20,630 bases of DNA from Candidatus Bathyarchaeota archaeon (GTDB lineage Archaea > Thermoproteota > Bathyarchaeia > Hecatellales > Hecatellaceae): NCBI GenBank assembly GCA_052246995.1, contig JBQPWD010000008.1:1-20630 (forward strand), given 5' to 3'. Shown here piece by piece: positions 1 through 20,630 of this stretch. Each line of letters starts with the position of its first letter. Within the stretch, counting starts at the first letter, position 1. The notes under the pieces were generated by a model. The model made no database searches. It had not been told where the DNA came from and saw only the letters and a list, made by a program, of their open reading frames with translations. Position numbers and translations under genes: made by a program.

Positions 1-358
1 GAAACTCACCCATATCAGGAAGAGGATACGGTACGGTAGGAAGATGAATAGAAGGCTCCACAGTATGCCATTCAGAAAAATTCAGTTTTACACCTCCTAT
101 AAGTCAATGGAGCTAGGCTTTAAGCCGGAAACCGTTAAAGCGGAAAACACCTCTAGGACATGTCCGGTATGTGGCGAGTTGAATAAGCCGAATAGGCATG
201 TCTTTAAATGTGGAAAGTGTGGCTTCCAAGCAGATAGACACTTTATCGCTGCATGGAATATAGCCATGAAACTTCCAATGTGGGGTGCTTTACCGTTGCC
301 CCCGAAAGCCATCCATGAGGCCATAGCCAAGGTGGAACGGATAGTTATAAAATGTTAA
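1..358 (+). CDS. tnpB: TnpB (IS200/IS605- or IS607-type OrfB) RNA-guided endonuclease, C-terminal part; 5' end outside window
   Basis: Frame open from base 2 (KLTHIRKRIRYGRKMNRRLHSMPF...). TSRTCPVCG...FKCGKCG zinc ribbon and RuvC-III-like DRHFIAAWNI. Confidence 0.9.
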   Translation, partial: KLTHIRKRIRYGRKMNRRLHSMPFRKIQFYTSYKSMELGFKPETVKAENTSRTCPVCGELNKPNRHVFKCGKCGFQADRHFIAAWNIAMKLPMWGALPLPPKAIHEAIAKVERIVIKC

Positions 359-372
359 CTATCCGACAACGG
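278..372 (+). ncRNA. Predicted TnpB omegaRNA scaffold / element right end (element A)
   Basis: ATGTGGGG...CCCCGAAAGCC motif; perfect 10-bp hairpin CGGATAGTTA (338-347)/TAACTATCCG (356-365); ACCGTTG (292-298) complementary to CAACGGT (367-373). 330-371 is identical to the reverse complement of 18020-18061. Boundaries approximate. Confidence 0.65.
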
Positions 373-373
373 T

Positions 374-450
374 TCAACGGAAAATCCCCACATCCTGGAT
401 TTTGCCTCACCACATATCGGGCTATGCTTTTGCCCATTCGGCGCCTTTTC
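374..450 (-). pseudogene. Short scrambled TnpB-like remnant abutting element A right end
   Basis: Minus frame reads EKAPNGQKHSPICGEAKSRMWGFSV (PNG, PICGE and MWG motifs typical of TnpB C-termini); DNA GATGTGGGGATTTTCCGTTG resembles the scaffold start of the other TnpB ends in the window. Confidence 0.5.
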
Positions 451-529
451 CATCGAGGAAGGGCCCAAAAGCGTTATATAAACTTAACTATTTATGAACT
501 GCTGATAAACCCTTTGGAGGGTTTAAAGC

Positions 530-952
530 TTGAGTGAGTTTAAATGTGAGATATGTAGTCTGAGAAATGCCAGGTATGTTTGCCAGTATTGTGGAAAAAG
601 GATTTGCGACTACTGTAAGATTCCAGGTAGGTTTACGTGTATAGAATGCTGTAGAACAAGGGAGGGTTATGGTGAAACTCAAGTTAAGGTTGAAGGTACA
701 CCTTTTCTACCATCAAAGCTCATGTTTATAGGCTTTATAACCATGCTTTTAGGCTTTATATTCATACTTGTTTCAGCTTTTCTTGGAGGCTTAGCTGGAG
801 AAGGCTGGGGTGGAGGGGTTTTCTGGATATTTCCCCTACCACCAATACTTATCGGCTCAGGCCTGACAGGAGTTTCCATACTTTTAACATTTTTAACCTT
901 CATAATTTTTTTCATCATCCTTGTCTTTCTCATGGTTAAAACCTTAAGATAA
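530..952 (+). CDS. Zinc-finger + membrane protein (DUF131-like C-terminus)
   Basis: Four CxxC pairs at N-terminus; hydrophobic segments around GGGVFWIFPLPPILIG. TTG start after GGAGG; TTATATAA box at 474-481. Confidence 0.7.
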   Translation: MSEFKCEICSLRNARYVCQYCGKRICDYCKIPGRFTCIECCRTREGYGETQVKVEGTPFLPSKLMFIGFITMLLGFIFILVSAFLGGLAGEGWGGGVFWIFPLPPILIGSGLTGVSILLTFLTFIIFFIILVFLMVKTLR

Positions 953-962
953 TAAGGTTTTT
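938..962 (+). terminator. Possible terminator hairpin at the stop of 530..952
   Basis: AAAACCTTA (938-946)/TAAGGTTTT (953-961), 6-nt loop, between convergent genes. Confidence 0.3.
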
Positions 963-992
963 GCTAAACCTTTACAAAGTTTTTATCAAAAT

Positions 993-1169
993 TTACATTA
1001 AAGTCTGCCCTTTACATGCAAGCATCAGAAGTTGGCAACATCTTGATTTTGTCGCGACCTGCTTACAGCAAGCGACTCCTCTCTAGTCTTCACAATCTTT
1101 ATTTACAACTATTGGTGTCAATTTTAGACTTAAAATATCCTCAATTTTTCGGCTTAAATTCCTTTTATC
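993..1169 (-). pseudogene. DUF169-like protein N-terminal relic, two frameshifts
   Basis: Across three frames: DKRNLSRKIEDILSLKLTPIVV / IKIVKTREES / KQVATKSRCCQLLMLACKGQTLM*, matching my recollection of the DUF169 start (LxLxxxPVAVK...RxCQxxxxARxG). Confidence 0.55.
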
Positions 1170-1186
1170 TAAGGGATTTTCCAGAA

Positions 1187-1534
1187 TTACTTTTTAACTT
1201 GTAATTTTTCTCTGTTCGCCAGAAGCTCTTCTCTACTACGTTGCACCACCTTATTTTTCTTTATCAACTTGTGCAAGTAAGATAATGGTGGAAAACTTAT
1301 TGCGTGTTGTGGGCATGTGTTTTGGCATGTGGTGCAGCCTACTAGGCAATTTAACGGTCTAGCTACAACCGCTACATTTCTTTCATAATCAAACTGGTAA
1401 ACGTTTCTTCCACAGTTTAAAACGCATATACCGCAGCCTATGCAAAGTTCAGAATCCACAGTGGGATACCAATTTATCTCCTCACGGGGTATACCACGCC
1501 ACGTTTGCTTAATGGCTCCTTCAACATTTACCAT
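1187..1534 (-). CDS. 4Fe-4S dicluster ferredoxin-family protein
   Basis: IPREEINWYPTVD, CIGCGICVLNC and CLVGCTTCQNTCP motifs. Confidence 0.9.
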   Translation of the reverse strand: MVNVEGAIKQTWRGIPREEINWYPTVDSELCIGCGICVLNCGRNVYQFDYERNVAVVARPLNCLVGCTTCQNTCPQHAISFPPLSYLHKLIKKNKVVQRSREELLANREKLQVKK

Positions 1535-1794
1535 TACTGGACACCTGCCTCTCTTAAGGCTTCCTTAAAGGTTTCTTCGCTCGGGCATACCCCTATTATG
1601 CGTATGTCCTTATCAATAACAACAGCGGGACTTGCAGTTATGCCATATTCGTTTAGCTTTGGGTTCATTCCGCGATAGATTTCAATTTCAATTTTGTCTT
1701 TATATTCCTCTCTGATTTTTTCTATCAGTTTGAGCAGCAGCCTTCCGCCTGAACATGGAGGCTCAGAGGTGAAAACTTCAACTTTAACTGGCAT
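1534..1794 (-). CDS. Thioredoxin-fold protein, PPCSGG variant
   Basis: VEVFT-EPPCSGG, YGITASPAVVID cis-Pro motif, C-terminal GVCPS; GGGGGT RBS. Confidence 0.85.
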   Translation of the reverse strand: MPVKVEVFTSEPPCSGGRLLLKLIEKIREEYKDKIEIEIYRGMNPKLNEYGITASPAVVIDKDIRIIGVCPSEETFKEALREAGVQ

Positions 1795-1796
1795 GT

Positions 1797-2057
1797 TTAC
1801 ACCCCCATTTCTTTAAGCGCCGCCTCAATTGTTTGCATGCTTGGACATACACCCATAATCTTTATTTTGCCTTCATTGAAGACTATGGCCGGCACTAATG
1901 TAAGACCGTATTTGCCGAACTCTTCACATGGCCCAACATGTTTTACCACCTCCACTTTATCACCGTATTTTGCCTTAATCAAATCCGCATACTCCAAGAG
2001 TTTTAGGCAGCCTGCACATGGCGGTTCAGCTGTAAAAGTTTCAACCTTTACAACCAT
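1797..2057 (-). CDS. Thioredoxin-fold protein, PPCAGC
   Basis: CxxC, YGLTLVPAIVFN, C-terminal GVCPS; AGGTGG RBS. Confidence 0.85.
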   Translation of the reverse strand: MVVKVETFTAEPPCAGCLKLLEYADLIKAKYGDKVEVVKHVGPCEEFGKYGLTLVPAIVFNEGKIKIMGVCPSMQTIEAALKEMGV

Positions 2058-2059
2058 GT

Positions 2060-2326
2060 TTACCCACCTTTTAATTCCTGTTTTACGGTGTTAAGTAGTT
2101 CCTCCCTACTGGGAACTTTTCCTGTAGTTAAAATTTTGCCATTAACGACAACGGTTGGAGTCATTAGTATATTGTACTTGTCAGCTTCCTCTGAGAAAGC
2201 TGTATACTTCTTTACCTCAATAGCTTCACCAAATTCTTTAACAATCTCCTCACACAGTTTAATTGTTGCTTTACATTTGGCGCAAGGCGGGTCAGATCCG
2301 AAAACCTCTATCTTAACTTTTTTCAT
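2060..2326 (-). CDS. Small redox-active thioredoxin-family protein (MTH895-like)
   Basis: PPCAKC, YNILMTPTVVVNGK...GKVPS; GGAGGTGG RBS. Confidence 0.88.
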   Translation of the reverse strand: MKKVKIEVFGSDPPCAKCKATIKLCEEIVKEFGEAIEVKKYTAFSEEADKYNILMTPTVVVNGKILTTGKVPSREELLNTVKQELKGG

Positions 2327-2382
2327 CCATTACCACCTCCCACAATTTTTTGTTATGTTAACTGAGCTAAACATAAAATCAA

Positions 2383-3459
2383 CTACCTCCAAAACGTGTT
2401 TCCTATGATGAAGGCGGTTATGGTAGCTAATACTACCGTGGTTAGTATGTAAACTAAAGCCTTCTTCACCGTAAACACCCTTGCAATTACAACCATGTTT
2501 GGAAGACTTAAACCAGGCCCAGCTAGTAGGAGGGCAAGGGCTGGACCTTTACCCATACCTAAACGCATAAGCATGTCAACAAACGGAGCTTCTGTAAGCG
2601 TGGCAAAGTAGCTTACAGCCCCTATCAACGTAGCAAGAAAGGTTGGTAAAATGGTGTTTCCGCCAAGCCATGTTTGAATCCATTCTGCAGGTAAAACTTT
2701 ACCTACAACTCCCACAACAAACACACCAACAAGTAGTAGTGGAAATATCATTCTAACAAACCATAGGGTTTCATAAAGCCAGTTTTTAACGGATGAGACT
2801 CCAAGTTTAAACCATGCATAGATAAATGTTAAAGTTACGGGTATAAGGAATAGGATAACCTTGTAAAGATAGGGTTTCCCTACACCAAGGTAGTTGGGTA
2901 GAAGAAGTGTAGCTATAAGCAGAATAAAAAGTATAAGATGTTTTAAACCTGTTACCTGAGTTGGTGTTATGGTTGAAGGGTTAGCAGCCTTCTTAGCCCT
3001 TTCCCTTTCATCCAACCTAAACATGTAAACCATAATTAAGCCAACAATAAAGGCTGTAGATAAGGCTGCAACAATCCTCATTAAAGCCATATCCAAACCA
3101 AGTATTGCTCCGGTATAAACTAAGGCTAGAAGGTTAGTTGCAGGTGCAGTCCAAAGTAGGATAAAGGCTGGCCCTATACTACTTCCCTTCCTATAAAGTC
3201 CAGCAGCTATTGGAATTACAGTACAAGAACAAACAGCCAAACATACACCAGAAGTAGCTGCAAGTGGAAATGAAACAATTTTCCTAGCTGTTGAACCCAT
3301 GTACCTAAGAATAGCTTCTCTTGAAAGAAAGGATGTTATAGCCCCCGCAAGCAGAAAAGCAGGAATTAAACATGTAAGAACATGAAAAGCTACATAGTCC
3401 CATAAAGCGTAAAACCCCGCAAAAATTAAATCTAACAGAAACACACCGTTTTCCTCCAC
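2383..3459 (-). CDS. ArsP/DUF318-family permease
   Basis: Multi-pass hydrophobic protein with HVLTCLIPAF, AVCSCTVIP, YFATLTE, GPALALLLAGPGLSLP motifs. Confidence 0.88.
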   Translation of the reverse strand: MEENGVFLLDLIFAGFYALWDYVAFHVLTCLIPAFLLAGAITSFLSREAILRYMGSTARKIVSFPLAATSGVCLAVCSCTVIPIAAGLYRKGSSIGPAFILLWTAPATNLLALVYTGAILGLDMALMRIVAALSTAFIVGLIMVYMFRLDERERAKKAANPSTITPTQVTGLKHLILFILLIATLLLPNYLGVGKPYLYKVILFLIPVTLTFIYAWFKLGVSSVKNWLYETLWFVRMIFPLLLVGVFVVGVVGKVLPAEWIQTWLGGNTILPTFLATLIGAVSYFATLTEAPFVDMLMRLGMGKGPALALLLAGPGLSLPNMVVIARVFTVKKALVYILTTVVLATITAFIIGNTFWR

Positions 3460-3475
3460 AATTTTAATATCATAT

Positions 3476-3512
3476 TATCGACATATCTAAATATCGCGAT
3501 ATATTTAAATAT
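3476..3512. promoter_or_regulatory. Divergent promoter with candidate ArsR operator
   Basis: 72-bp intergenic gap; perfect palindromes ATATCGCGATAT (3491-3502) and ATATTTAAATAT (3501-3512, TATA-like on both strands); ATATC-N10-GATAT at 3483-3502. Confidence 0.55.
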
Positions 3513-3531
3513 TTTCTAAGCATTATTTAAT

Positions 3532-3876
3532 GTGGTAACCTTGAATAAAGAAAAGGTTATTTCAGAATACAGGGTAAGACTTCTTAATGCGTTAGCAGAC
3601 CCACTTCGGTTGGAGATAGTGGAGTTTTTAAAGGATGGAGAACGTTGTGTATGTGAAATTATCCCGGTTTTTGGGAGAGCTCAATCCACAATTTCTAAAC
3701 ATCTTGACATTCTATACCAAGCAGGAATCTTAGATAGACGTGTTGAGGGAAAACGAACAATTTACAGCATAAAAAACAATCAAGTATTTAAAATTCTTAA
3801 GGAAGTTGACATCTTCATTCTAAATCAGCTTTCACCAGTAACTAAAGCCGTTAAGCTTCTGAAGACTTCTACATAG
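3532..3876 (+). CDS. arsR: ArsR/SmtB-family transcriptional repressor
   Basis: ALADPLRLEIV...GERCVCEI...QSTISKHLDIL; CVC alpha-3 metalloid-binding motif. Confidence 0.92.
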   Translation: MVTLNKEKVISEYRVRLLNALADPLRLEIVEFLKDGERCVCEIIPVFGRAQSTISKHLDILYQAGILDRRVEGKRTIYSIKNNQVFKILKEVDIFILNQLSPVTKAVKLLKTST

Positions 3877-3929
3877 TAGCAACTGTAAAAAAGAGAGTTA
3901 ATTAAGATGTTGTAAAGAATGTGTAAAAA

Positions 3930-4331
3930 GTGACCATTTTGGCTAAGACACTAACAATTGTGCTTTTAACAGGACCTTATACTTCACAGTATGCAGACAT
4001 AGCATGCCATATAGCTGAAAAGGCTTTAGAACAAGGTTGTAAAGTTAACCTCTTTCTTTACATGGATGGTGTTCATGTAGCTGTAAAAGGTCAAATAACA
4101 AACAATTTTCCCAATATTGAAGAAAACCTCAAAAAACTTATCAAAAAAGGGCTTAAAGTTAAAGCATGTGTAAGATGTGCGTCAGCTAGAGGATACGTTG
4201 AAGATGGGAAAACAGTTGAAACTGGCGTATTCTCTACTTCACGGTATGTTGAAGGGGTTACTATAACAGGAATTTATGAGCTTCCCAAATGGATAAGTGA
4301 AAGTGAAAAGGTTATAGTGTTTGGGGATTGA
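3930..4331 (+). CDS. DsrE/TusD-family sulfur relay protein
   Basis: LLTGPY, LFLYMDGVH, ACVRCASARG with conserved active Cys region. Start may be TTG 3939. Confidence 0.85.
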   Translation: MTILAKTLTIVLLTGPYTSQYADIACHIAEKALEQGCKVNLFLYMDGVHVAVKGQITNNFPNIEENLKKLIKKGLKVKACVRCASARGYVEDGKTVETGVFSTSRYVEGVTITGIYELPKWISESEKVIVFGD

Positions 4332-4695
4332 GATAACGGTTAACTCTGTTGTAATACTGGTAACTAAAGCACCTTATGGACATGAAAACGTCTATGGTGC
4401 ATTGTACACGGCTATAGCATGTCAAGAGATGGGGGTTCAGGTTACTGTGATTCTTCTCGGTGACGGAGTATACTCGGCTTTAAAAAAACAGAACCCTGAA
4501 AGAAGTATTGGCTACCCTTCAATTGAGAATCTTTTTTACACACTTTTACCAAACTGTGAAGTTCTTGTAGAGAAATCCTCGTTGGCGGAAAGGGGATTAT
4601 CAAAAGACAACCTTATTGAAGTTGTAAAGATAACAGATAGGGAAGGTGTATGTAAAGCTTTGAAAGAAAAAGGTAAAGCAATTTTAACATACTGA
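4321..4695 (+). CDS. DsrF/TusC-family protein
   Basis: VTKAPYG, LLGDGVY, SLAERGL. Start is TTG 4321 or possibly ACG 4336. Confidence 0.82.
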   Translation: MGIEITVNSVVILVTKAPYGHENVYGALYTAIACQEMGVQVTVILLGDGVYSALKKQNPERSIGYPSIENLFYTLLPNCEVLVEKSSLAERGLSKDNLIEVVKITDREGVCKALKEKGKAILTY

Positions 4696-14612: not shown

Positions 14613-15695
14613 CTATCTTTCCCTTTTACCCTCTATAAACTCTTCAACCCATTTTTTTGCCAGGTAGTCTGGAGCTTGAACTGGTGGATGTTTAAATGCA
14701 TATGCCGATATGCTGGTTAACGGTCCACCAATTTTTCTGTCAAGCGCAATTTTCATAGCTCTGATAACGTCAACCACTACTCCTGCACTGTTTGGTGAGT
14801 CTTCAACGCTAAGTTTAACATCTATGTAGACTGGTATGCCTCCAAACTTTTTGCCAACAATGTTGATGTAACATATTTTTCTGTCTTTGAGAAAGGGAAT
14901 GTAGTCTGATGGTCCTATTTTTACAGGTATTTTGTGGGGTACAAGGGATGTTACAGCCTCTGTTTTGCTTATCCTTTTTCTAGCTAACCTTTCTTCAACA
15001 GTCATGTTTAGGAAGTCGGTGTTTCCTCCTATGTTTAGCTGGTAGGTTTCTTCAATTTTAACACCTCTACTTTCAAGCAGGTCTACAAGAACCCTGTGTA
15101 GGATTGTTGCTCCAATTTGGCTTTTAACATCGTCACCTGCAACTGGAAGTTTGGCGTCTTCAAACCTTTTAGCCCAGTTTGGGTCTGAGGCTATAAACTC
15201 TGGTATGGCGTTTATAAATCCACATTTAGCTTTTAATGCTTGTTCAGCGTAGAATTGGGTTGCTTTTATACTTCCAACAGGTAGATAGTTGATAAGTATT
15301 TCAGCTTCACTTTCCGTTAAAACTTCTGCAACGTCAACAGGTTCTATTGGTTGGGTGTTGGCTAGGCCGAAGGCTTCTTTCATGTGTGGTGCAACACCGT
15401 CAAGAACTGGTGCAGGTTTAACTTTAACACCTATCTTTGGAACATCGGCAAACTTTACGGTGCAGTTTGGGGGTGAGAAAATGGCTTCTGAAAGGTCTTT
15501 ACCAACTTTTCTAGGGTCAACGTCAAATGCGGCTACAAACTTTATATCACTAATAGTGTATCCTCCAAAGTTGGGATGTATAAGTCCAACAACATCATCT
15601 TCGCTGTATCTGTAACGTCCATAAAAGTATACTCCTTGAACAAGGGAGGATGCACAGTTGCCGACACCTGCTATTGCCACTTTGATTGGTGACAT
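14613..15695 (-). CDS. ino1: myo-inositol-1-phosphate synthase
   Basis: GVGNCASSLVQG, INYLPVGS, GDDVKSQIGAT, GGNTDFLNM, DSPNSAG. Confidence 0.96.
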   Translation of the reverse strand: MSPIKVAIAGVGNCASSLVQGVYFYGRYRYSEDDVVGLIHPNFGGYTISDIKFVAAFDVDPRKVGKDLSEAIFSPPNCTVKFADVPKIGVKVKPAPVLDGVAPHMKEAFGLANTQPIEPVDVAEVLTESEAEILINYLPVGSIKATQFYAEQALKAKCGFINAIPEFIASDPNWAKRFEDAKLPVAGDDVKSQIGATILHRVLVDLLESRGVKIEETYQLNIGGNTDFLNMTVEERLARKRISKTEAVTSLVPHKIPVKIGPSDYIPFLKDRKICYINIVGKKFGGIPVYIDVKLSVEDSPNSAGVVVDVIRAMKIALDRKIGGPLTSISAYAFKHPPVQAPDYLAKKWVEEFIEGKRER

Positions 15696-15952
15696 TAAGT
15701 AACACCTAAATTTTAAGGCGGCCTGCTTTAACCCATGTTAAGAGTTAGTTTAATTATCTTTACTTTTACCTTAGGACGCATATAAAATTTCGTATATAAT
15801 TTGTTAAATTTTTTATATGTTTTTAGGTATTTACTAACACTATAAACATTGCTTTCCGTTTAACTGTAAAGGTTTTGAAGCCTGTATTGGGGTTGGGTTG
15901 TTGAGGCTTTAATTTTAAAAATTAAAAATGCTTAAAATAGATTGTAGTTTAT

Positions 15953-16735
15953 TTGTGGTTGGTGGGTGTAAAGGTGACTAACGTTTATCATGTTGCATTT
16001 TCAGAGCCTGGAGGCATACTTTCACTTTTTTTTGCAAGCTGTAATTTTAAGTGTAAAGGGTGTGCCATGAAGATTACACCTTGGAATTTTTACTTGGCTG
16101 AGGATGTACGTTTAAGGCTTGGGTCTGCTGAGGGTGTTAAAACGTTGGAGCTTTTTGAGCTTGAAAGGCTTCTTAAACCTTTAAAGGTTAATTATGCTGT
16201 TGTTGGTTGTGTTGGTGAGCCGACGATTGACGGGGAGATTGTTGACATTGTTAGGGTTCTTAAAAGGCTTAAGGCTGGTTTAATATTGCTGTTAACCAAT
16301 GGTTACAACTTGGATGAGGATATGGTTGGGGATTTGAAGAATGCAGGTGTGGATGAGGTTGAGGTTAGCATTAAAGCCTACACGGATGATATACATATAG
16401 AATATACTGGTGTTTCAAATAGGAGGGTTTTGGAAAACTTTAAACTTCTTTGGAGGATGGGTGTTAAGCTTAGGTGTGAAACTGTTGTAATTCCAAGGCT
16501 TGTGGAGGTTGATGAGGTTGAAAAAATTGCTAAGTTTGTGGCCTCGGTAAACCCGTTGATTCCTTACAGGGTTGATAGGTATACTAGGGCTCCAGGTGCA
16601 CCTTGGAGGGATGCTACGTTTGCAGAGGTTTTGGATGCTATGATGGTTGCAAAAAAATATTTAAAAAATGTTTATTATGCTGAGGCTACACCTCCAACTG
16701 AAAGGGTTTACACCGTTTACCCTAAACTTTCCTAA
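15953..16735 (+). CDS. Radical SAM protein, PflA/organic-radical activase-like
   Basis: CNFKCKGC, GEPT, LLTNG, VSIKA. Start uncertain (possibly GTG 15974). 3' end overlaps purM by 14 bp. Confidence 0.87.
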   Translation: MWLVGVKVTNVYHVAFSEPGGILSLFFASCNFKCKGCAMKITPWNFYLAEDVRLRLGSAEGVKTLELFELERLLKPLKVNYAVVGCVGEPTIDGEIVDIVRVLKRLKAGLILLLTNGYNLDEDMVGDLKNAGVDEVEVSIKAYTDDIHIEYTGVSNRRVLENFKLLWRMGVKLRCETVVIPRLVEVDEVEKIAKFVASVNPLIPYRVDRYTRAPGAPWRDATFAEVLDAMMVAKKYLKNVYYAEATPPTERVYTVYPKLS

Positions 16736-17816
16736 ATTTGCCTTTAAAACCTAAAAGGTTTTTAGGTTTTAGGTATAGTTTTTTTTCAGTGTCTTTTACC
16801 GTGAAGCCAAGTTTGTATGCTTTTGTTCCATGTTTTTCTGCTATGTCGACAACCATTTCGGCGTCTTGCTTGGAAACAACGATGCAAAAGCCTATTCCCA
16901 TGTTGTAAACGTTGTACATTTCCTCATCTGGGATTTTTCCGGTTTTTTGGATAAGTTTAAAGATTGGTTGGGGTTGGGGGAGGTTTTCTAGGATGTAGCT
17001 GTAGCCTTCTCCAACTCTTAAAAGGTTGAGTAAACCTTTACCTGTAATGTTTGCTAAAACTTTGATGTTTAACTCGGCTTTAACCATTTCCATGATTTCT
17101 TGAACGTAGATTTTTGTTGGTTTAAGAAGTTCTTCGCCAAGCGTAGATTGAAGTTCGTCAACGTATGTAAAAACGTCCATGTTGGTATTGTCAAGTAAAA
17201 CTTTTCTGGCCAGGGTTAAACCGTTGCTGTGGATTCCTGAGCTTTCCAGTCCGATGACAACGTCGCCTTCGGCCAAATTTTTACCGTCAACAATTTTTTC
17301 CAGGTTTACGATGCCTATACACATGCCTACAAGGTCGAAGCCGTATCCTTCCCTTTTACCTTTAATCATTTCTGGGAGTTGGGCAATTTCTCCTCCAACA
17401 ATTGTAACCTTGGCAAGCTTGGCGCCCTCGTACAGTCCTTTGGCTATTTCTTCAAGCATTTTTTTGTCTGGTTTTTGGATGGCAATGTAGTCTAGGAAGG
17501 ATAGTGGTTCAGCGCCTACACAGATGATGTCGTTAACGTTCATGGCAACACAGTCAATACCGACCGTGTCATATTTGTTCATGAGCTGGGCTATGAAAAC
17601 TTTTGAGCCTACTCCGTCGGTTTTTAACGCTAAACCGTATTTACCTAGAAATTTTACTACACCTGCAAAATGTCCTATGGGTATGGCAGGTTTACCGATG
17701 CCGGTCTTAAAGTTGAATGTTTTACTACACCATTCAAGCATGGATTTTAAGGCTTTATCCTCCTCCTCAACGTCAACACCAGCATTCCTGTATGTTTTAG
17801 GAGTATCTCCAACCAA
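16722..17816 (-). CDS. purM: Phosphoribosylformylglycinamidine cyclo-ligase (AIR synthetase)
   Basis: TYRNAGVD, TDGVGSK, DCVAMNVND, SSGIHSNG, YNMGIG. Confidence 0.96.
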   Translation of the reverse strand: MVGDTPKTYRNAGVDVEEEDKALKSMLEWCSKTFNFKTGIGKPAIPIGHFAGVVKFLGKYGLALKTDGVGSKVFIAQLMNKYDTVGIDCVAMNVNDIICVGAEPLSFLDYIAIQKPDKKMLEEIAKGLYEGAKLAKVTIVGGEIAQLPEMIKGKREGYGFDLVGMCIGIVNLEKIVDGKNLAEGDVVIGLESSGIHSNGLTLARKVLLDNTNMDVFTYVDELQSTLGEELLKPTKIYVQEIMEMVKAELNIKVLANITGKGLLNLLRVGEGYSYILENLPQPQPIFKLIQKTGKIPDEEMYNVYNMGIGFCIVVSKQDAEMVVDIAEKHGTKAYKLGFTVKDTEKKLYLKPKNLLGFKGKFRKV

Positions 17817-17920
17817 GTAAAACCACCAAAAGGTTTGTAGAAAATTGGGGTTCTGAGTTAAGTAGAGATAGATAATGTTTCATTACCTCTACTTAACTCT
17901 TCCCTCTCGATTGATTCATA
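17794..17920 (+). repeat. Direct repeat, copy 1 (127 bp identical to 20504-20630)
   Basis: Base-by-base match at offset 2710; contains purM start/RBS and TnpB element B right end. Confidence 0.95.
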
Positions 17921-18019
17921 GAGGGCTTTCGGGGTGAACCCAGACCCCCACATCTGAAGATTCAGCACAGCTATTATGTTTCTATCCATTACTAAACTAC
18001 ACTCCTTGCATTTCATTAA
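17848..18019 (-). mobile_element. TnpB element B relic: C-terminus and right end
   Basis: LMKCKECSLVMDRNIIAVLNLQMWGSGFTPKALYE...ST*; 13-bp hairpin GAGTTAAGTAGAG (17855-17867)/CTCTACTTAACTC (17887-17899). Confidence 0.82.
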
Positions 18020-18478
18020 CGTTGTCGGATAGTTAACATTTTATAACTATCCGTTCCACCTCAGCCTTAGAGGTTTCACAGATGGCTTTCAGGGGTAACG
18101 GGGCTCCCCTCATCCTGAGCATGTTTAAACATGCGGTTACATCTCTGTCGTTTTCAACCCTCAGAATATGCGGGTTAGAGCTTACTACCATGACGTTTGA
18201 CTCGTTGACATCTATCGCTATCCAGTCATCGGGATTCGATAAATCTACATCCTTTTTGAACGACACTATTATTTTACTTTCATTCATTGTTATCTCACCA
18301 GTCTTCAGCTTTCCTTCTTTCCAAGCATCTATGAACTTCTTCTGATACTCACCATACCTCTAAAGTCCTCTAATAGCTTCCTTACATTATCGTTTATCTC
18401 ATATCCGAAGGGGACACCGGTTATTACTTCCACGATTAGAGTATACTCAGAAATGTTATGTAAAGTTAACTATTCAGG
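18020..18478 (-). mobile_element. TnpB element C: internally deleted non-autonomous derivative retaining both ends
   Basis: GTG 18433 MEVITGVPFGY...LLEDFRGMV / GEYQKKF...WIAIDVNE (RuvC-I)...HILRV joined directly to ENDRDVTACLNML (RuvC-III); right end shared with element A; imperfect left-end palindrome at about 18450-18476. Confidence 0.85.
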
Positions 18479-18592
18479 AACTGCTACCGAACCCCTCAGC
18501 CTTCAACTTTTCAACTATTTCCTTTGCCTCTTCCTCCTTCACTTTACATTCCCCACATGTATTTTTACACACCAAGGTTTTAAGGTTTTAAG

Positions 18593-18700
18593 TTTTACGA
18601 GACTTACGAGGTTTACGACAACTTTTACCAGATTTACGAGTTCGTAAAACTCAACTTGTAACTATATGTCGTAAATTTGCTCGTAAAATGACATGTAAAA
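18593..18700. repeat. Cluster of short TTAC(GA) direct repeats followed by inverted (TC)GTAA copies
   Basis: TTAC at 18595, 18604, 18613, 18625, 18634; GTAA at 18644, 18658, 18671, 18683, 18695. Confidence 0.75.
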
Positions 18701-18858
18701 AGTTTTAATGAACTACAACAAAACAAATACTGTTCGTTTTTCGATTATCCTTATAAAGCCCAATGTAAAATTGGGATAATCGAAAAATGTTTAAAAAGAA
18801 AAACCTTATAAAAAGCTAAAAACAAAAAATAAACCAGAAAAACCACCCTCACACCACG
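18701..18858 (+). promoter_or_regulatory. CRISPR leader with BRE/TATA and 14-bp inverted repeat
   Basis: A-rich, non-coding; GAAAAAC-CTTATAAA at about 18798-18812; TTTTTCGATTATCC (18737-18750)/GGATAATCGAAAAA (18774-18787). Confidence 0.75.
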
Positions 18859-19738
18859 GTTACAAAACAAAAATCCCATAAGAGGGAATTGAAAGCTTTG
18901 TGAATAGGTAGTCTAATGTTTTGAATGTTCCAGATGTGTTACAAAACAAAAATCCCATAAGAGGGAATTGAAAGATACAGTTTCACAAACCTCTCTAAGA
19001 CTTGTTCTAATCTGTTACAAAACAAAAATCCCATAAGAGGGAATTGAAAGGCCGTTTTTATTACCACTTTCTCACCCCCTTATCTTTAGTTACAAAACAA
19101 AAATCCCATAAGAGGGAATTGAAAGGCCGTTTTTATTACCACTTTCTCACCCCCTTATCTTTAGTTACAAAACAAAAATCCCATAAGAGGGAATTGAAAG
19201 TTAACTACTATGTGGAACTTATGGATAGGTGAAACATAGTTACAAAACAAAAATCCCATAAGAGGGAATTGAAAGTTGATTAAACCTCTTTTAATCGCCA
19301 ACACTGTGAAAAACTGTGTTACAAAACAAAAATCCCATAAGAGGGAATTGAAAGTACATGTACATTTTTTAAGCCTTTAAAGTGTAAACTTCGTTACAAA
19401 ACAAAAATCCCATAAGAGGGAATTGAAAGCCAATGTTTTGTCTTCTTGCATTATCCTTAAAAAGATTCCGTTACAAAACAAAAATCCCATAAGAGGGAAT
19501 TGAAAGAAAACAGGACAGACAACAGCGTCGTAGGCGTAACTTGTATATGTTACAAAACAAAAATCCCATAAGAGGGAATTGAAAGTAATAGACGCTAAAA
19601 GTCAAGCAGAGTTTACGGATAAGCTGTTACAAAACAAAAATCCCATAAGAGGGAATTGAAAGAACTCCATCGCTATTTCTGGTGGGAGAGCTTGCAGTAG
19701 TGTTACAAAACAAAAATCCCATAAGAGGGAATTGAAAG
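18859..19738 (+). CRISPR. CRISPR array: 12 identical 37-bp repeats, 11 spacers of 38-42 bp
   Basis: Repeat GTTACAAAACAAAAATCCCATAAGAGGGAATTGAAAG starting at 18859, 18938, 19014, 19089, 19164, 19239, 19318, 19393, 19470, 19549, 19626, 19702; the ATTGAAAG 3' end is the class 1 (Cas6) handle. Confidence 0.98.
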
Positions 19739-19811
19739 TGAATAACGTAGTCGAGGAAAGAGGATAGCAAAACGGGGTTTTGAGGTTGTTTGTAAAATGC
19801 TGGTGAGAGTG

Positions 19812-19861
19812 TTTAAATATAACATTACAAATATTACGTTTAGATGCATGTTTAAACGTAA
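19812..19861 (+). promoter_or_regulatory. vapBC promoter and candidate operator
   Basis: TTTAAATA at 19812-19819; inverted repeat TTACGTTTA (19834-19842)/TAAACGTAA (19853-19861). Confidence 0.5.
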
Positions 19862-19870
19862 ACATAAACG

Positions 19871-20098
19871 GTGTTAAAGTTGCCAAAAACAATTACAATC
19901 AGAGATGATGTTTATAAAAGGTTGTTGGAGGTTAAACGTGAGGGGGAAAGTTTTAGTGAGTTGTTTGAGAGGCTTATTGGAGGTGTAGGTTTAAACTCTC
20001 TTGAGGTTTTAAGGATGCTTAGGGGTTGTGTTGAGTTTAAGGATAAGGAGAGGTTGATTAGGGAGATTTATGCTGTAAGGTCTGAGTGTAGACTATGA
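19871..20098 (+). CDS. vapB: VapB-family antitoxin (DUF217/UPF0330-like)
   Basis: KTITIRDDVYKRL...KREGESFSELFERL; ATGA overlap with PIN gene. Start may be TTG 19880. Confidence 0.88.
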   Translation: MLKLPKTITIRDDVYKRLLEVKREGESFSELFERLIGGVGLNSLEVLRMLRGCVEFKDKERLIREIYAVRSECRL

Positions 20099-20478
20099 TA
20101 GTCTTGGATACGGATGTGCTTATCGAGATTTTTGATAAGCATTCTGTTAAGGGGGATGAGGCTTTAAAGGTTCTTGAGGAGAGGGGAGAGGATGTTGCTA
20201 CAACAGTTATTAATCTTCATGAACTTTTATATGGTCTTGAGAAATATGCTAAACCTGTAAAGGAAGTTTTACTTTTACCGGTAATTGAGTATGGTAAGAG
20301 GGATGCTCAACTGTCCGCTAAGCTGGAGTTGAAGGCTGAGAGTTTAGGGGCGTCTGTTAGGAGGATGGATGCGATGATAGCAGCCATAGTAATAAACAGG
20401 GGAGCACAACTTTACACGTTTGACTTAAAACATTTCAGTTTATTCAAAAATTTTGGCTTAAAAATCATCGAACCATAA
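20095..20478 (+). CDS. vapC: VapC PIN-domain ribonuclease toxin
   Basis: IVLDTDVLI, ELLYG, DAMIAA, TFDLKHF: all acidic PIN residues present. Confidence 0.93.
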   Translation: MIVLDTDVLIEIFDKHSVKGDEALKVLEERGEDVATTVINLHELLYGLEKYAKPVKEVLLLPVIEYGKRDAQLSAKLELKAESLGASVRRMDAMIAAIVINRGAQLYTFDLKHFSLFKNFGLKIIEP

Positions 20479-20481
20479 ACC

Positions 20482-20526
20482 TTACATGTCAGCATCCTTA
20501 TACGTTTTAGGAGTATCTCCAACCAA
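20482..20526 (-). pseudogene. 14-codon stub of a second purM 5' end
   Basis: MVGDTPKTYKDADM* versus intact MVGDTPKTYRNAGV. Confidence 0.8.
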
Positions 20527-20630
20527 GTAAAACCACCAAAAGGTTTGTAGAAAATTGGGGTTCTGAGTTAAGTAGAGATAGATAATGTTTCATTACCTCT
20601 ACTTAACTCTTCCCTCTCGATTGATTCATA
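20504..20630 (+). repeat. Direct repeat, copy 2 (runs to window end)
   Basis: Identical to 17794-17920, including the element B right-end hairpin (20565-20609). Confidence 0.95.

Follow-up and report, generated by a model that had tools for sequence, protein, structure and literature searches.

A CRISPR array and vapBC pair beside purM in a hot-spring archaeon: probably part of a fragmented type I CRISPR-Cas island

In Sulfolobales, vapBC toxin-antitoxin pairs are interspersed with modules of CRISPR and cas genes in variable regions rich in insertion sequences (IS), and section 8 of PMC4390879 proposes a maintenance role for them. From assemblies made with SPAdes, 127-bp terminal repeats are reported in a passage of PMC8104045. 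Here, we analyse a locus in which a CRISPR array and a vapBC pair lie at a contig end between two copies of the start of purM. It belongs to Candidatus Bathyarchaeota archaeon (assembly GCA_052246995.1, here G000), a hot-spring archaeal genome assembled from a metagenome; G001 and the following numbers denote its relatives. The window, meaning the whole stretch of 20,630 nt that was analysed, is the entire contig JBQPWD010000008.1 (C8), and the second copy of the repeat therefore ends on the last base of the contig. We consider it fairly probable that the locus represents a type I CRISPR-Cas island of the ordinary sort, fragmented and with a vapBC pair, which lies between purM and its old neighbour and carries the scar of a rearrangement.

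Direct comparison within the window gave an exact identity of 17794-17920 with 20504-20630 over 127 nt (offset 2710), as had been read in the initial annotation of this DNA. A search of the whole assembly (1.53 Mb, 17 contigs) gave no copies of the 127-nt repeat beyond these two. The match of the two copies is not attributable to chance, and its length of 127 nt is not biological. To the left, the edges 17780-17793 and 20490-20503 are alike at 10/14 positions (9/13 in the initial annotation), and further left there is no similarity. On the minus strand, copy 1 gives the purM start M-V-G-D-T-P-K-T-Y-R-N-A-G. For copy 2, the reading is M-V-G-D-T-P-K-T-Y-K-D-A-D-M-stop, at a distance of 11 nt from the stop codon of vapC, so that the earlier distinction of TYRNAG from TYKDAD-stop was confirmed together with the diverged flank. 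Compared to purM of G001, which is from the same genus, the edge of copy 2 is identical at 13/14 positions and that of copy 1 at 11/14. The purM homology in copy 2 stops at 20489/20490. Judged from the sequence, the switch from 0/127 to 4/14 mismatches is a recombination boundary.

The meaning of the length 127 is seen at the other contig ends. For each of the 34 ends, we determined the longest terminal stretch that recurs exactly at another place in the assembly. It is exactly 127 nt at five of them (C2 end, C3 start, C3 end, C5 end, and C8 end), 88-120 nt at eight, and 27-61 nt at three; 18 ends have none, and nowhere does the match exceed 127 nt. A terminal maximum of 127 nt is the signature of a de Bruijn assembler at k = 127. 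The C8 end carries such a k-mer overlap: its length equals k, it sits at the terminus, and it recurs at other ends. Internal repeats of 868 nt (C2:2549-3416), 347 nt (C6:114977-115323), and 1170 nt (C3:93722-94891) are overlapped at both edges by pairs of contig ends. Hence, a terminal overlap shows no more than where a longer repeat has its edge, and the caution voiced in the initial annotation, that 127 is an assembler k-mer and the repeat may be longer, was well placed. The C8 end overlaps a site in the interior of C8 itself and thus marks a repeat or loop, not a circular replicon. A further junction of this kind was noticed. The C2 end has a tandem duplication with a period of 294 nt and a 127-nt terminal overlap (C2:259902-260322), and the first 99 nt of C4 match C2:260124, another repeat junction that the assembly left unresolved.

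The second copy was followed in four public hot-spring metagenome runs (X1-X4) of one study, which hold 23-49% of the sampled words of 16700-20630. As the runs are possibly the source samples, they are independent of the assembler and not of the reads. Their Logan k = 31 contigs were placed on 15000-20630. Depths are given as k-mer means per contig (3-10x); they derive from contigs, are not copy numbers, and count as weak evidence. In X2, record 16 (20354-20533, depth 7.3) spans the joint of vapC and the purM' fragment and covers 136 and 44 nt of its two sides. Because this contig comes from an independent assembly at k = 31, the vapC/purM' joint is real, and so is the second copy of the purM start. 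Record 32 of X4 extends only 16 nt beyond the joint. The purM-side contigs of X2 and X3 end at 17823, 30 nt inside the repeat, as a branch point would yield. Record 22 of X3 starts exactly at 17794 and is continuous to 18031 with a depth of 9.75; the purM-side contig of this run has 5.4 and its vapC contig 4.8.

The right edge of the repeat is blurred, as 18020-18116 belongs to an IS end that occurs in multiple copies (depth 39-92). The repeat probably reaches from 17794 to somewhere in 18019-18116, which corresponds to 226-323 bp and would take in the start of purM, the adjoining 27 nt of the old spacer, and an IS relic. At position 17992, the only contig of X1 has T at double depth and X3 has C, a weak hint at a joint change of both copies. 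Over the remaining cassette, the exact-match contigs have depths of 6.3 and 7.7 (18117-18357), 4.1 (leader), 3.7-6.3 (vapB), and 2.8-4.8 (vapC), and purM has 3.7-5.4. The interior contigs are thus as low as those of the flanks, without a sign of amplification or of an excess of circles, and the interior of the cassette appears to be single-copy. The amplification considered in the initial annotation finds no counterpart in these contig depths, weak evidence as they are, since the interior is no deeper than the purM flank.

The repeat can be dated relative to an IS insertion. Homology to G001 runs from purM through 17843 and then ends, and over 17848-17912 the DNA shares 94% identity with an IS copy of G030, which belongs to another family. 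This places the insertion point of IS relic 1 at 17844-17847. As the repeat spans the junction of native DNA and IS relic, the duplication is younger than that insertion; it probably extends over the whole of IS relic 1. The TnpB relics were identified by BLASTP against the PF07282-positive TnpB fragment at 2-358, and neither relic itself reaches PF07282. They have what is expected of TnpB relics of the IS200/IS605-IS607 type, namely a TnpB coding remnant and a structured right end. The ends of IS relic 2 match four other sites (C8:293-371, C10:12193-12275, C17:500-552, and C17:427-473). The last of these adjoins a TnpA fragment with MerR-helix-turn-helix and resolvase (serine-recombinase) parts, which identifies IS relic 2 as IS607-like. 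An Rfam search of 17500-20630 with E up to 0.1 gave no match. BLASTP, Pfam, and the repeat count agree with the earlier inventory of the DNA between the copies (TnpB relics, leader, 12-repeat array, and vapBC).

The same IS also appears at contig ends. C8 begins within a TnpB gene (window 1-373, PF07282), which is the sole TNB-domain match of the assembly. The last 120 nt of C10 are the reverse complement of C8:255-374, and C17 (2-552) begins within a serine-recombinase TnpA of the IS607 type. Full-length copies of the IS607-like IS are evidently multi-copy, unassembled, and behind several contig breaks.

The surroundings of purM in relatives show what was inserted. In G001, purM is divergent from a 170-aa CxxCxxCC (ykgJ-like) gene, with a 125-nt spacer between them, and the two genes are also adjacent in G007 and G009 (3/11 of the purM loci of relatives examined). 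In G000, the CxxCxxCC gene is at C6:4161-4673, and of the DNA in front of it only ~70 nt can still be aligned with the G001 spacer. These ~70 nt on C6 and the 27 nt next to purM are the two halves of that spacer; hence, all DNA between them is an insertion. G001, G007, and G009 are without the whole island, not merely without the 2.7-kb unit.

C6 opens with a cas8b-like gene (TIGR02556, cas8b/TM1802; 51.8 bits vs a cutoff of 157 bits, model positions 1-333 of 571), which runs off the contig. Next to it is the sole cas6 of the assembly (TIGR01877, 122 bits vs a cutoff of 58.65), and the two genes are 2.3 kb from the CxxCxxCC gene. C8 has the only array with its repeat in G000. Among 40 relatives, only G025 has a close cas6 (another family, 70% identity). 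The arrays of G025 use GTTCAAGAAGAAAAATCCCATAAAGGGAATTGAAAG, which is of the same repeat family, and its cas6 contig likewise ends inside cas8b. In G040, the same repeat family stands beside csa1-cas1-cas2-cas4-cas7-cas5-cas3. The G025 cas6 with its repeats and the G040 operon together support the pairing of the C6 cas6 with the C8 repeat. A comparison of the Cas8b fragment with a genome contig collection gave one irrelevant weak match (44% over 34 residues) in a proteobacterial metagenome-assembled genome.

From synteny, C8 and C6 would be adjacent, and the array is probably not cas-less. The gap that contains the exit from repeat copy 2 also contains the remaining operon, if there is one. 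The earlier statement that there is no cas gene or integrase holds within the window (22 open reading frames (ORFs) scanned), and its part on cas fails genome-wide, where cas6 and the cas8b-like gene open C6. The search for a cas locus thus led to genes beside the neighbour that purM has in three relatives. This comes close to the cas operon just outside the window which the initial annotation itself had named as speaking against its portable cassette.

These findings can be joined into the following course of events. Between purM and the ykgJ-like gene, an island would have entered the short spacer, and two TnpB-type insertion sequences would have struck it afterwards. The island probably continues over the unassembled gap into C6, and the array would store the guides for a type I (I-B-like) system. 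During rearrangements, a short segment of the purM edge may have been duplicated behind vapC, comprising 37 nt of purM, 27 nt of the old intergenic region, and IS relic 1. The assembler would have taken the path from purM through the repeat, the array, and vapBC into the repeat again and halted one k-mer (127 nt) in, and a halt at this point leaves an exact 127-nt identity at the contig end. Two routes could account for the edge. Either gene conversion keeps the repeat interior identical while the edge escapes, or one side was replaced by, or derived from, another allele. The duplication would then be a recombination scar with an interior that is identical by recency or by gene conversion. TnpB-guided homing was also considered as the source of the duplication and set aside, as the duplicated flank of 64 nt is longer than a guide.

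Several observations weigh against a fragmented island with a duplicated edge. The abrupt switch from 0/127 to 4/14 mismatches does not fit a simple recent duplication; it requires that gene conversion took place, that the purM allele was replaced, or that copy 2 is of foreign origin. Run X4 is without cover across 17820-18007. No contig in the bin begins at the right edge of the repeat, and no contig end matches C8:17794-18500; with no partner contig leaving the repeat, the continuation of C8 is absent from the bin. Likewise, no contig or read joins the C8 end to the C6 start, and the remaining 8/11 purM loci of relatives have other neighbours within ~1.5 kb. Profile searches of the G000 assembly did not find Cas1, DevR/Cas7, Cas3 above cutoff, or Cmr2, and no cas family was found among the 55 ORFs of the small contigs C9-C17. 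Thus, a complete cas operon is assumed, not seen. Finally, the leader points away from the presumed cas genes.

A mixture of strains is one alternative. The purM/repeat joint and the vapC/purM' joint could come from different co-existing variants, and the contig would then be a graph walk that matches no single chromosome. G000 is a metagenome bin, the samples are rich in related arrays (array bins have depths of 100-800 vs ~5 in the flanks), single nucleotide polymorphisms differ among the runs (e.g., C/T at 17992), and the joint-side contigs of X2 are twofold apart in depth (3.7 vs 7.3). However, an intact purM start is needed in any genome with the vapC/purM' stub, which makes a duplication within one genome necessary anyway. 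Moreover, the depth of the shared segment in X3 equals the sum of both sides, and the contamination of the bin is 0.54%. We therefore regard a mixture as unlikely.

The portable cassette stabilised by vapBC, which the initial annotation had put forward, is the next candidate. Here, the 2.7-kb unit would be a mobile or excisable circle that has a purM-like stub of 37 nt besides IS relic, leader, array, and vapBC and that integrated in Campbell fashion at the segment of purM start and IS, with vapBC penalising its loss. Direct repeats do flank the unit (at least 127 nt plus a 14-nt diverged edge, at a gene end, as in islands flanked by att sites), and the vapC/purM' joint is real. A loop-out between the copies is physically possible and could remove 2710 bp or turn them into a circle, and the integrated form looks the same in a de Bruijn graph as an empty site plus circle. 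The edge of copy 2, with 4/14 differences and then a sudden loss of homology, is what would be expected if it came from another molecule. In addition, leader-bearing arrays occur at unrelated sites in a relative, within the ribosomal-protein cluster of G009, and cas-less mini-arrays on mobile elements are known (PMC6858448, PMC11656645, and PMC10541130).

However, none of the 22 window ORFs scanned matches a recombinase (or cas) family, and the only recombinase seen is the IS607-type TnpA fragment on C17. The repeat probably covers the IS relic and measures at least 226 bp, an extension that suggests exchange driven by homology, not by a specific site. The cassette is as deep as its flanks, and the cas genes probably lie beside it. 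There is no recurrence of the unit, 6/6 vapBC loci of relatives are without repeats or other cassette parts, and an empty site specific to the unit was not found among the relatives. Flanking repeats of at least 11 nt are present at 0/2 of the G009 arrays. Exact searches of metagenome contigs with the 32-nt vapC/purM' joint and the 28-nt repeat core gave 0 matches each, and the repeat core had 0 matches in a viral contig collection. Together, the C6 cas genes, the flat depth, the lack of recurrence, and the G009 arrays without flanking repeats make an excisable cassette improbable. Its more far-reaching form is more doubtful still: that the unit is a CRISPR memory packet mobilised by recombination, moving between related strains in circular or linear form, anchoring through homology at the purM/IS junction, and held by the toxin-antitoxin pair. 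If true, such a packet would explain leader-array modules at unrelated chromosomal sites in this archaeal family, e.g., in the ribosomal-protein cluster of G009.

The G009 arrays deserve a separate description. There are two leader-bearing arrays with two repeat variants, which apparently lie in the ribosomal-protein supercluster between L22/S3 and L18/S5. They are found at L041 (C1 end), L037 (C51, both ends), and L038 (C53 start), and all four contig ends break inside arrays. In G000, the L22/S3 and L18/S5 pairs are adjacent without an array. Either the insertion site in G009 is unusual, or the placement is an effect of the assembly.

Tandem amplification, i.e., at least two head-to-tail 2710-bp units collapsed by the assembler, which a contig ending in its own internal repeat does resemble, is hardly credible: on contig depths (not copy numbers, and with X4 uncovered over 17820-18007) we rejected it, as leader, vapB, vapC, and IS relic 2 are no deeper than the purM side, only 17794 to ~18031 is roughly doubled, and an edge divergence of 4/14 is unlike a recent tandem copy.

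The features of the purM end of the window are listed in Table 1.

Table 1 Features between purM and the end of contig C8
Feature	Position	Strand	Remarks
purM (AIR synthase)	16722..17816	-	TTG start; first 23 nt inside copy 1; Pfam AIRS + AIRS_C; 84% identity to G001 orthologue
Diverged left edge, copy 1 (purM codons Y-R-N-A-G)	17780..17793	-	10/14 identical to 20490-20503
Repeat copy 1	17794..17920		purM codons 1-8, 27 nt ancestral intergenic with GGTGG ribosome-binding site, end of IS relic 1
IS relic 1	17848..18019	-	Last ~52 codons of TnpB (17858-18016), end hairpin with 13-bp stem 17855-17899; BLASTP E 1e-9
IS relic 2, internally deleted, IS607-like	18020..18495	-	Right end 18020-18062; TnpB C-terminal 84 codons 18033-18287; left-end-like 18449-18495; BLASTP E 9e-8
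5' stump of 111-aa gene + distal leader	18492..18598	-	94% identical to C10:11604-11710
CRISPR leader	18599..18858	+	A/T-rich; homology to G006, G009; also C10
CRISPR array	18859..19738	+	12 identical 37-nt repeats (GTTACAAAAC...ATTGAAAG), 11 spacers of 38-42 nt
vapB antitoxin	19871..20098	+	PF02697, 57.3 bits, E 2.7e-15
vapC PIN-domain toxin	20095..20478	+	PF01850, 48.8 bits, E 1.3e-12
purM' fragment (Y-K-D-A-D, then M-stop)	20490..20503	-	13/14 identical to G001 purM
Repeat copy 2	20504..20630		Contig end cuts copy exactly 127 nt past last mismatch

The array has near-identical repeats, uniform spacers, and a conserved leader on one side, as is usual for CRISPR arrays. Its period is 75-79 nt, and 10/11 spacers are unique, as spacer 3 equals spacer 4. 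The repeat carries a 4-bp stem (UCCC/GGGA, read from the sequence) and a ATTGAAAG tail. The array is normal and probably working. Its likely function would be transcription from the leader, cutting by Cas6, and then type I interference, and the CRISPR RNAs would carry the 8-nt tag AUUGAAAG. Spacers compared with the own genome gave only chance matches of 13-22 nt. In viral contigs, stretches of 2/10 unique spacers gave 0 matches, a weak test by exact matching only.

In the leader, a palindrome TTCGATTATC-N25-GATAATCGAA (45 nt, 18740-18784) encloses a TATA-like box and lies 74 nt ahead of repeat 1. It is single in the G000 assembly and was found in 6/6 leaders examined (G000, G009, G040, and G025; at least three families), the other positions being L037:6916-6960, L038:435-479, L040:10762-10806, L027:5134-5178, and L028:172-216. 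The distance of 74 nt to repeat 1 is also found in one G009 leader. From its conservation, the palindrome looks like an operator or promoter for leader transcription or leader recognition. Besides C8, G000 has a second CRISPR locus (C10:11344-11710), which is decayed to a single degenerate repeat and has lost the proximal leader including the palindrome. At this locus, the 111-aa gene is intact, and an IS607-like end is adjacent, at the contig end.

vapB and vapC overlap by 4 nt (20095-20098) in the gene order of type II VapBC pairs, and both Pfam scores are above the cutoffs. By eye, D5, E43, D92, and D110 of VapC are candidates for the four acidic active-site residues of PIN domains. The vapBC homologues of relatives (59-70% identity) have no CRISPR repeats or cassette parts within ~1.5 kb at 6/6 loci.

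Other parts of the assembly were inspected as well. At 2383-4695, the window has genes for an ArsP-type permease, an ArsR-family regulator, two tandem DsrE/DsrF-like proteins, and then an Fe-S cluster domain protein, all unrelated to the array. C16 (L035) has a primase-polymerase/DUF5906 gene and a CcdA-like antitoxin at 443-4691 and looks plasmid- or virus-like. C12, C13, and most of C11 (L030-L032) consist of same-strand ORFs without Pfam match at 1e-5 and may be viral or integrated-element contigs. No array spacer matches C11-C13 or C16.

Read as a fragmented island, the locus is one more archaeal CRISPR-Cas island with vapBC and IS debris between housekeeping genes, in which a small real duplication could delete the array by recombination. 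It also holds two points for the reading of other metagenome contigs. A repeat of length k at the end of a short-read contig should be taken as the mark of a loop in the assembly graph before it is taken as an attachment site, and an array without cas genes in the window may have its cas genes on a neighbouring contig.

The 127-nt overlaps of SPAdes-type assemblies at k = 127 resemble the C8 end in that the exact identity ends together with the contig, on its last base. They differ in that the C8 end overlaps an internal site of its own contig, not the opposite end. Mini-arrays without cas genes on viruses and mobile elements (as presented in PMC6858448 and, for Bathyarchaeia viruses, PMC10541130) likewise have no adjacent cas gene and could use the Cas6 and effector of the host. 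In the accounts given there, such arrays carry 1-4 spacers within genomes that are recognisable as those of viruses or plasmids, whereas the G000 array has 11 spacers and a full host-type leader, is chromosomal between housekeeping genes, and has no element genes around it.

With archaeal Cas6-processed type I (I-A/I-B-like) arrays, the locus shares 37-nt repeats with an 8-nt ATTGAAAG 5' handle and a short stem, spacers of 38-42 nt, an A/T-rich conserved leader, and a cas6 and cas8b-like gene in the same genome. Unlike in these systems, adaptation and interference genes were not found in the G000 assembly, IS relics stand between the leader and any cas gene, and the leader is directed away from where the operon is presumed to be. 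Compared to the Sulfolobales case described in section 8 of PMC4390879, the present locus belongs to another archaeal class and has a single pair, and the maintenance role is a proposal in both. In both, vapBC stands beside a CRISPR module amid the remains of transposable elements and rearrangements.

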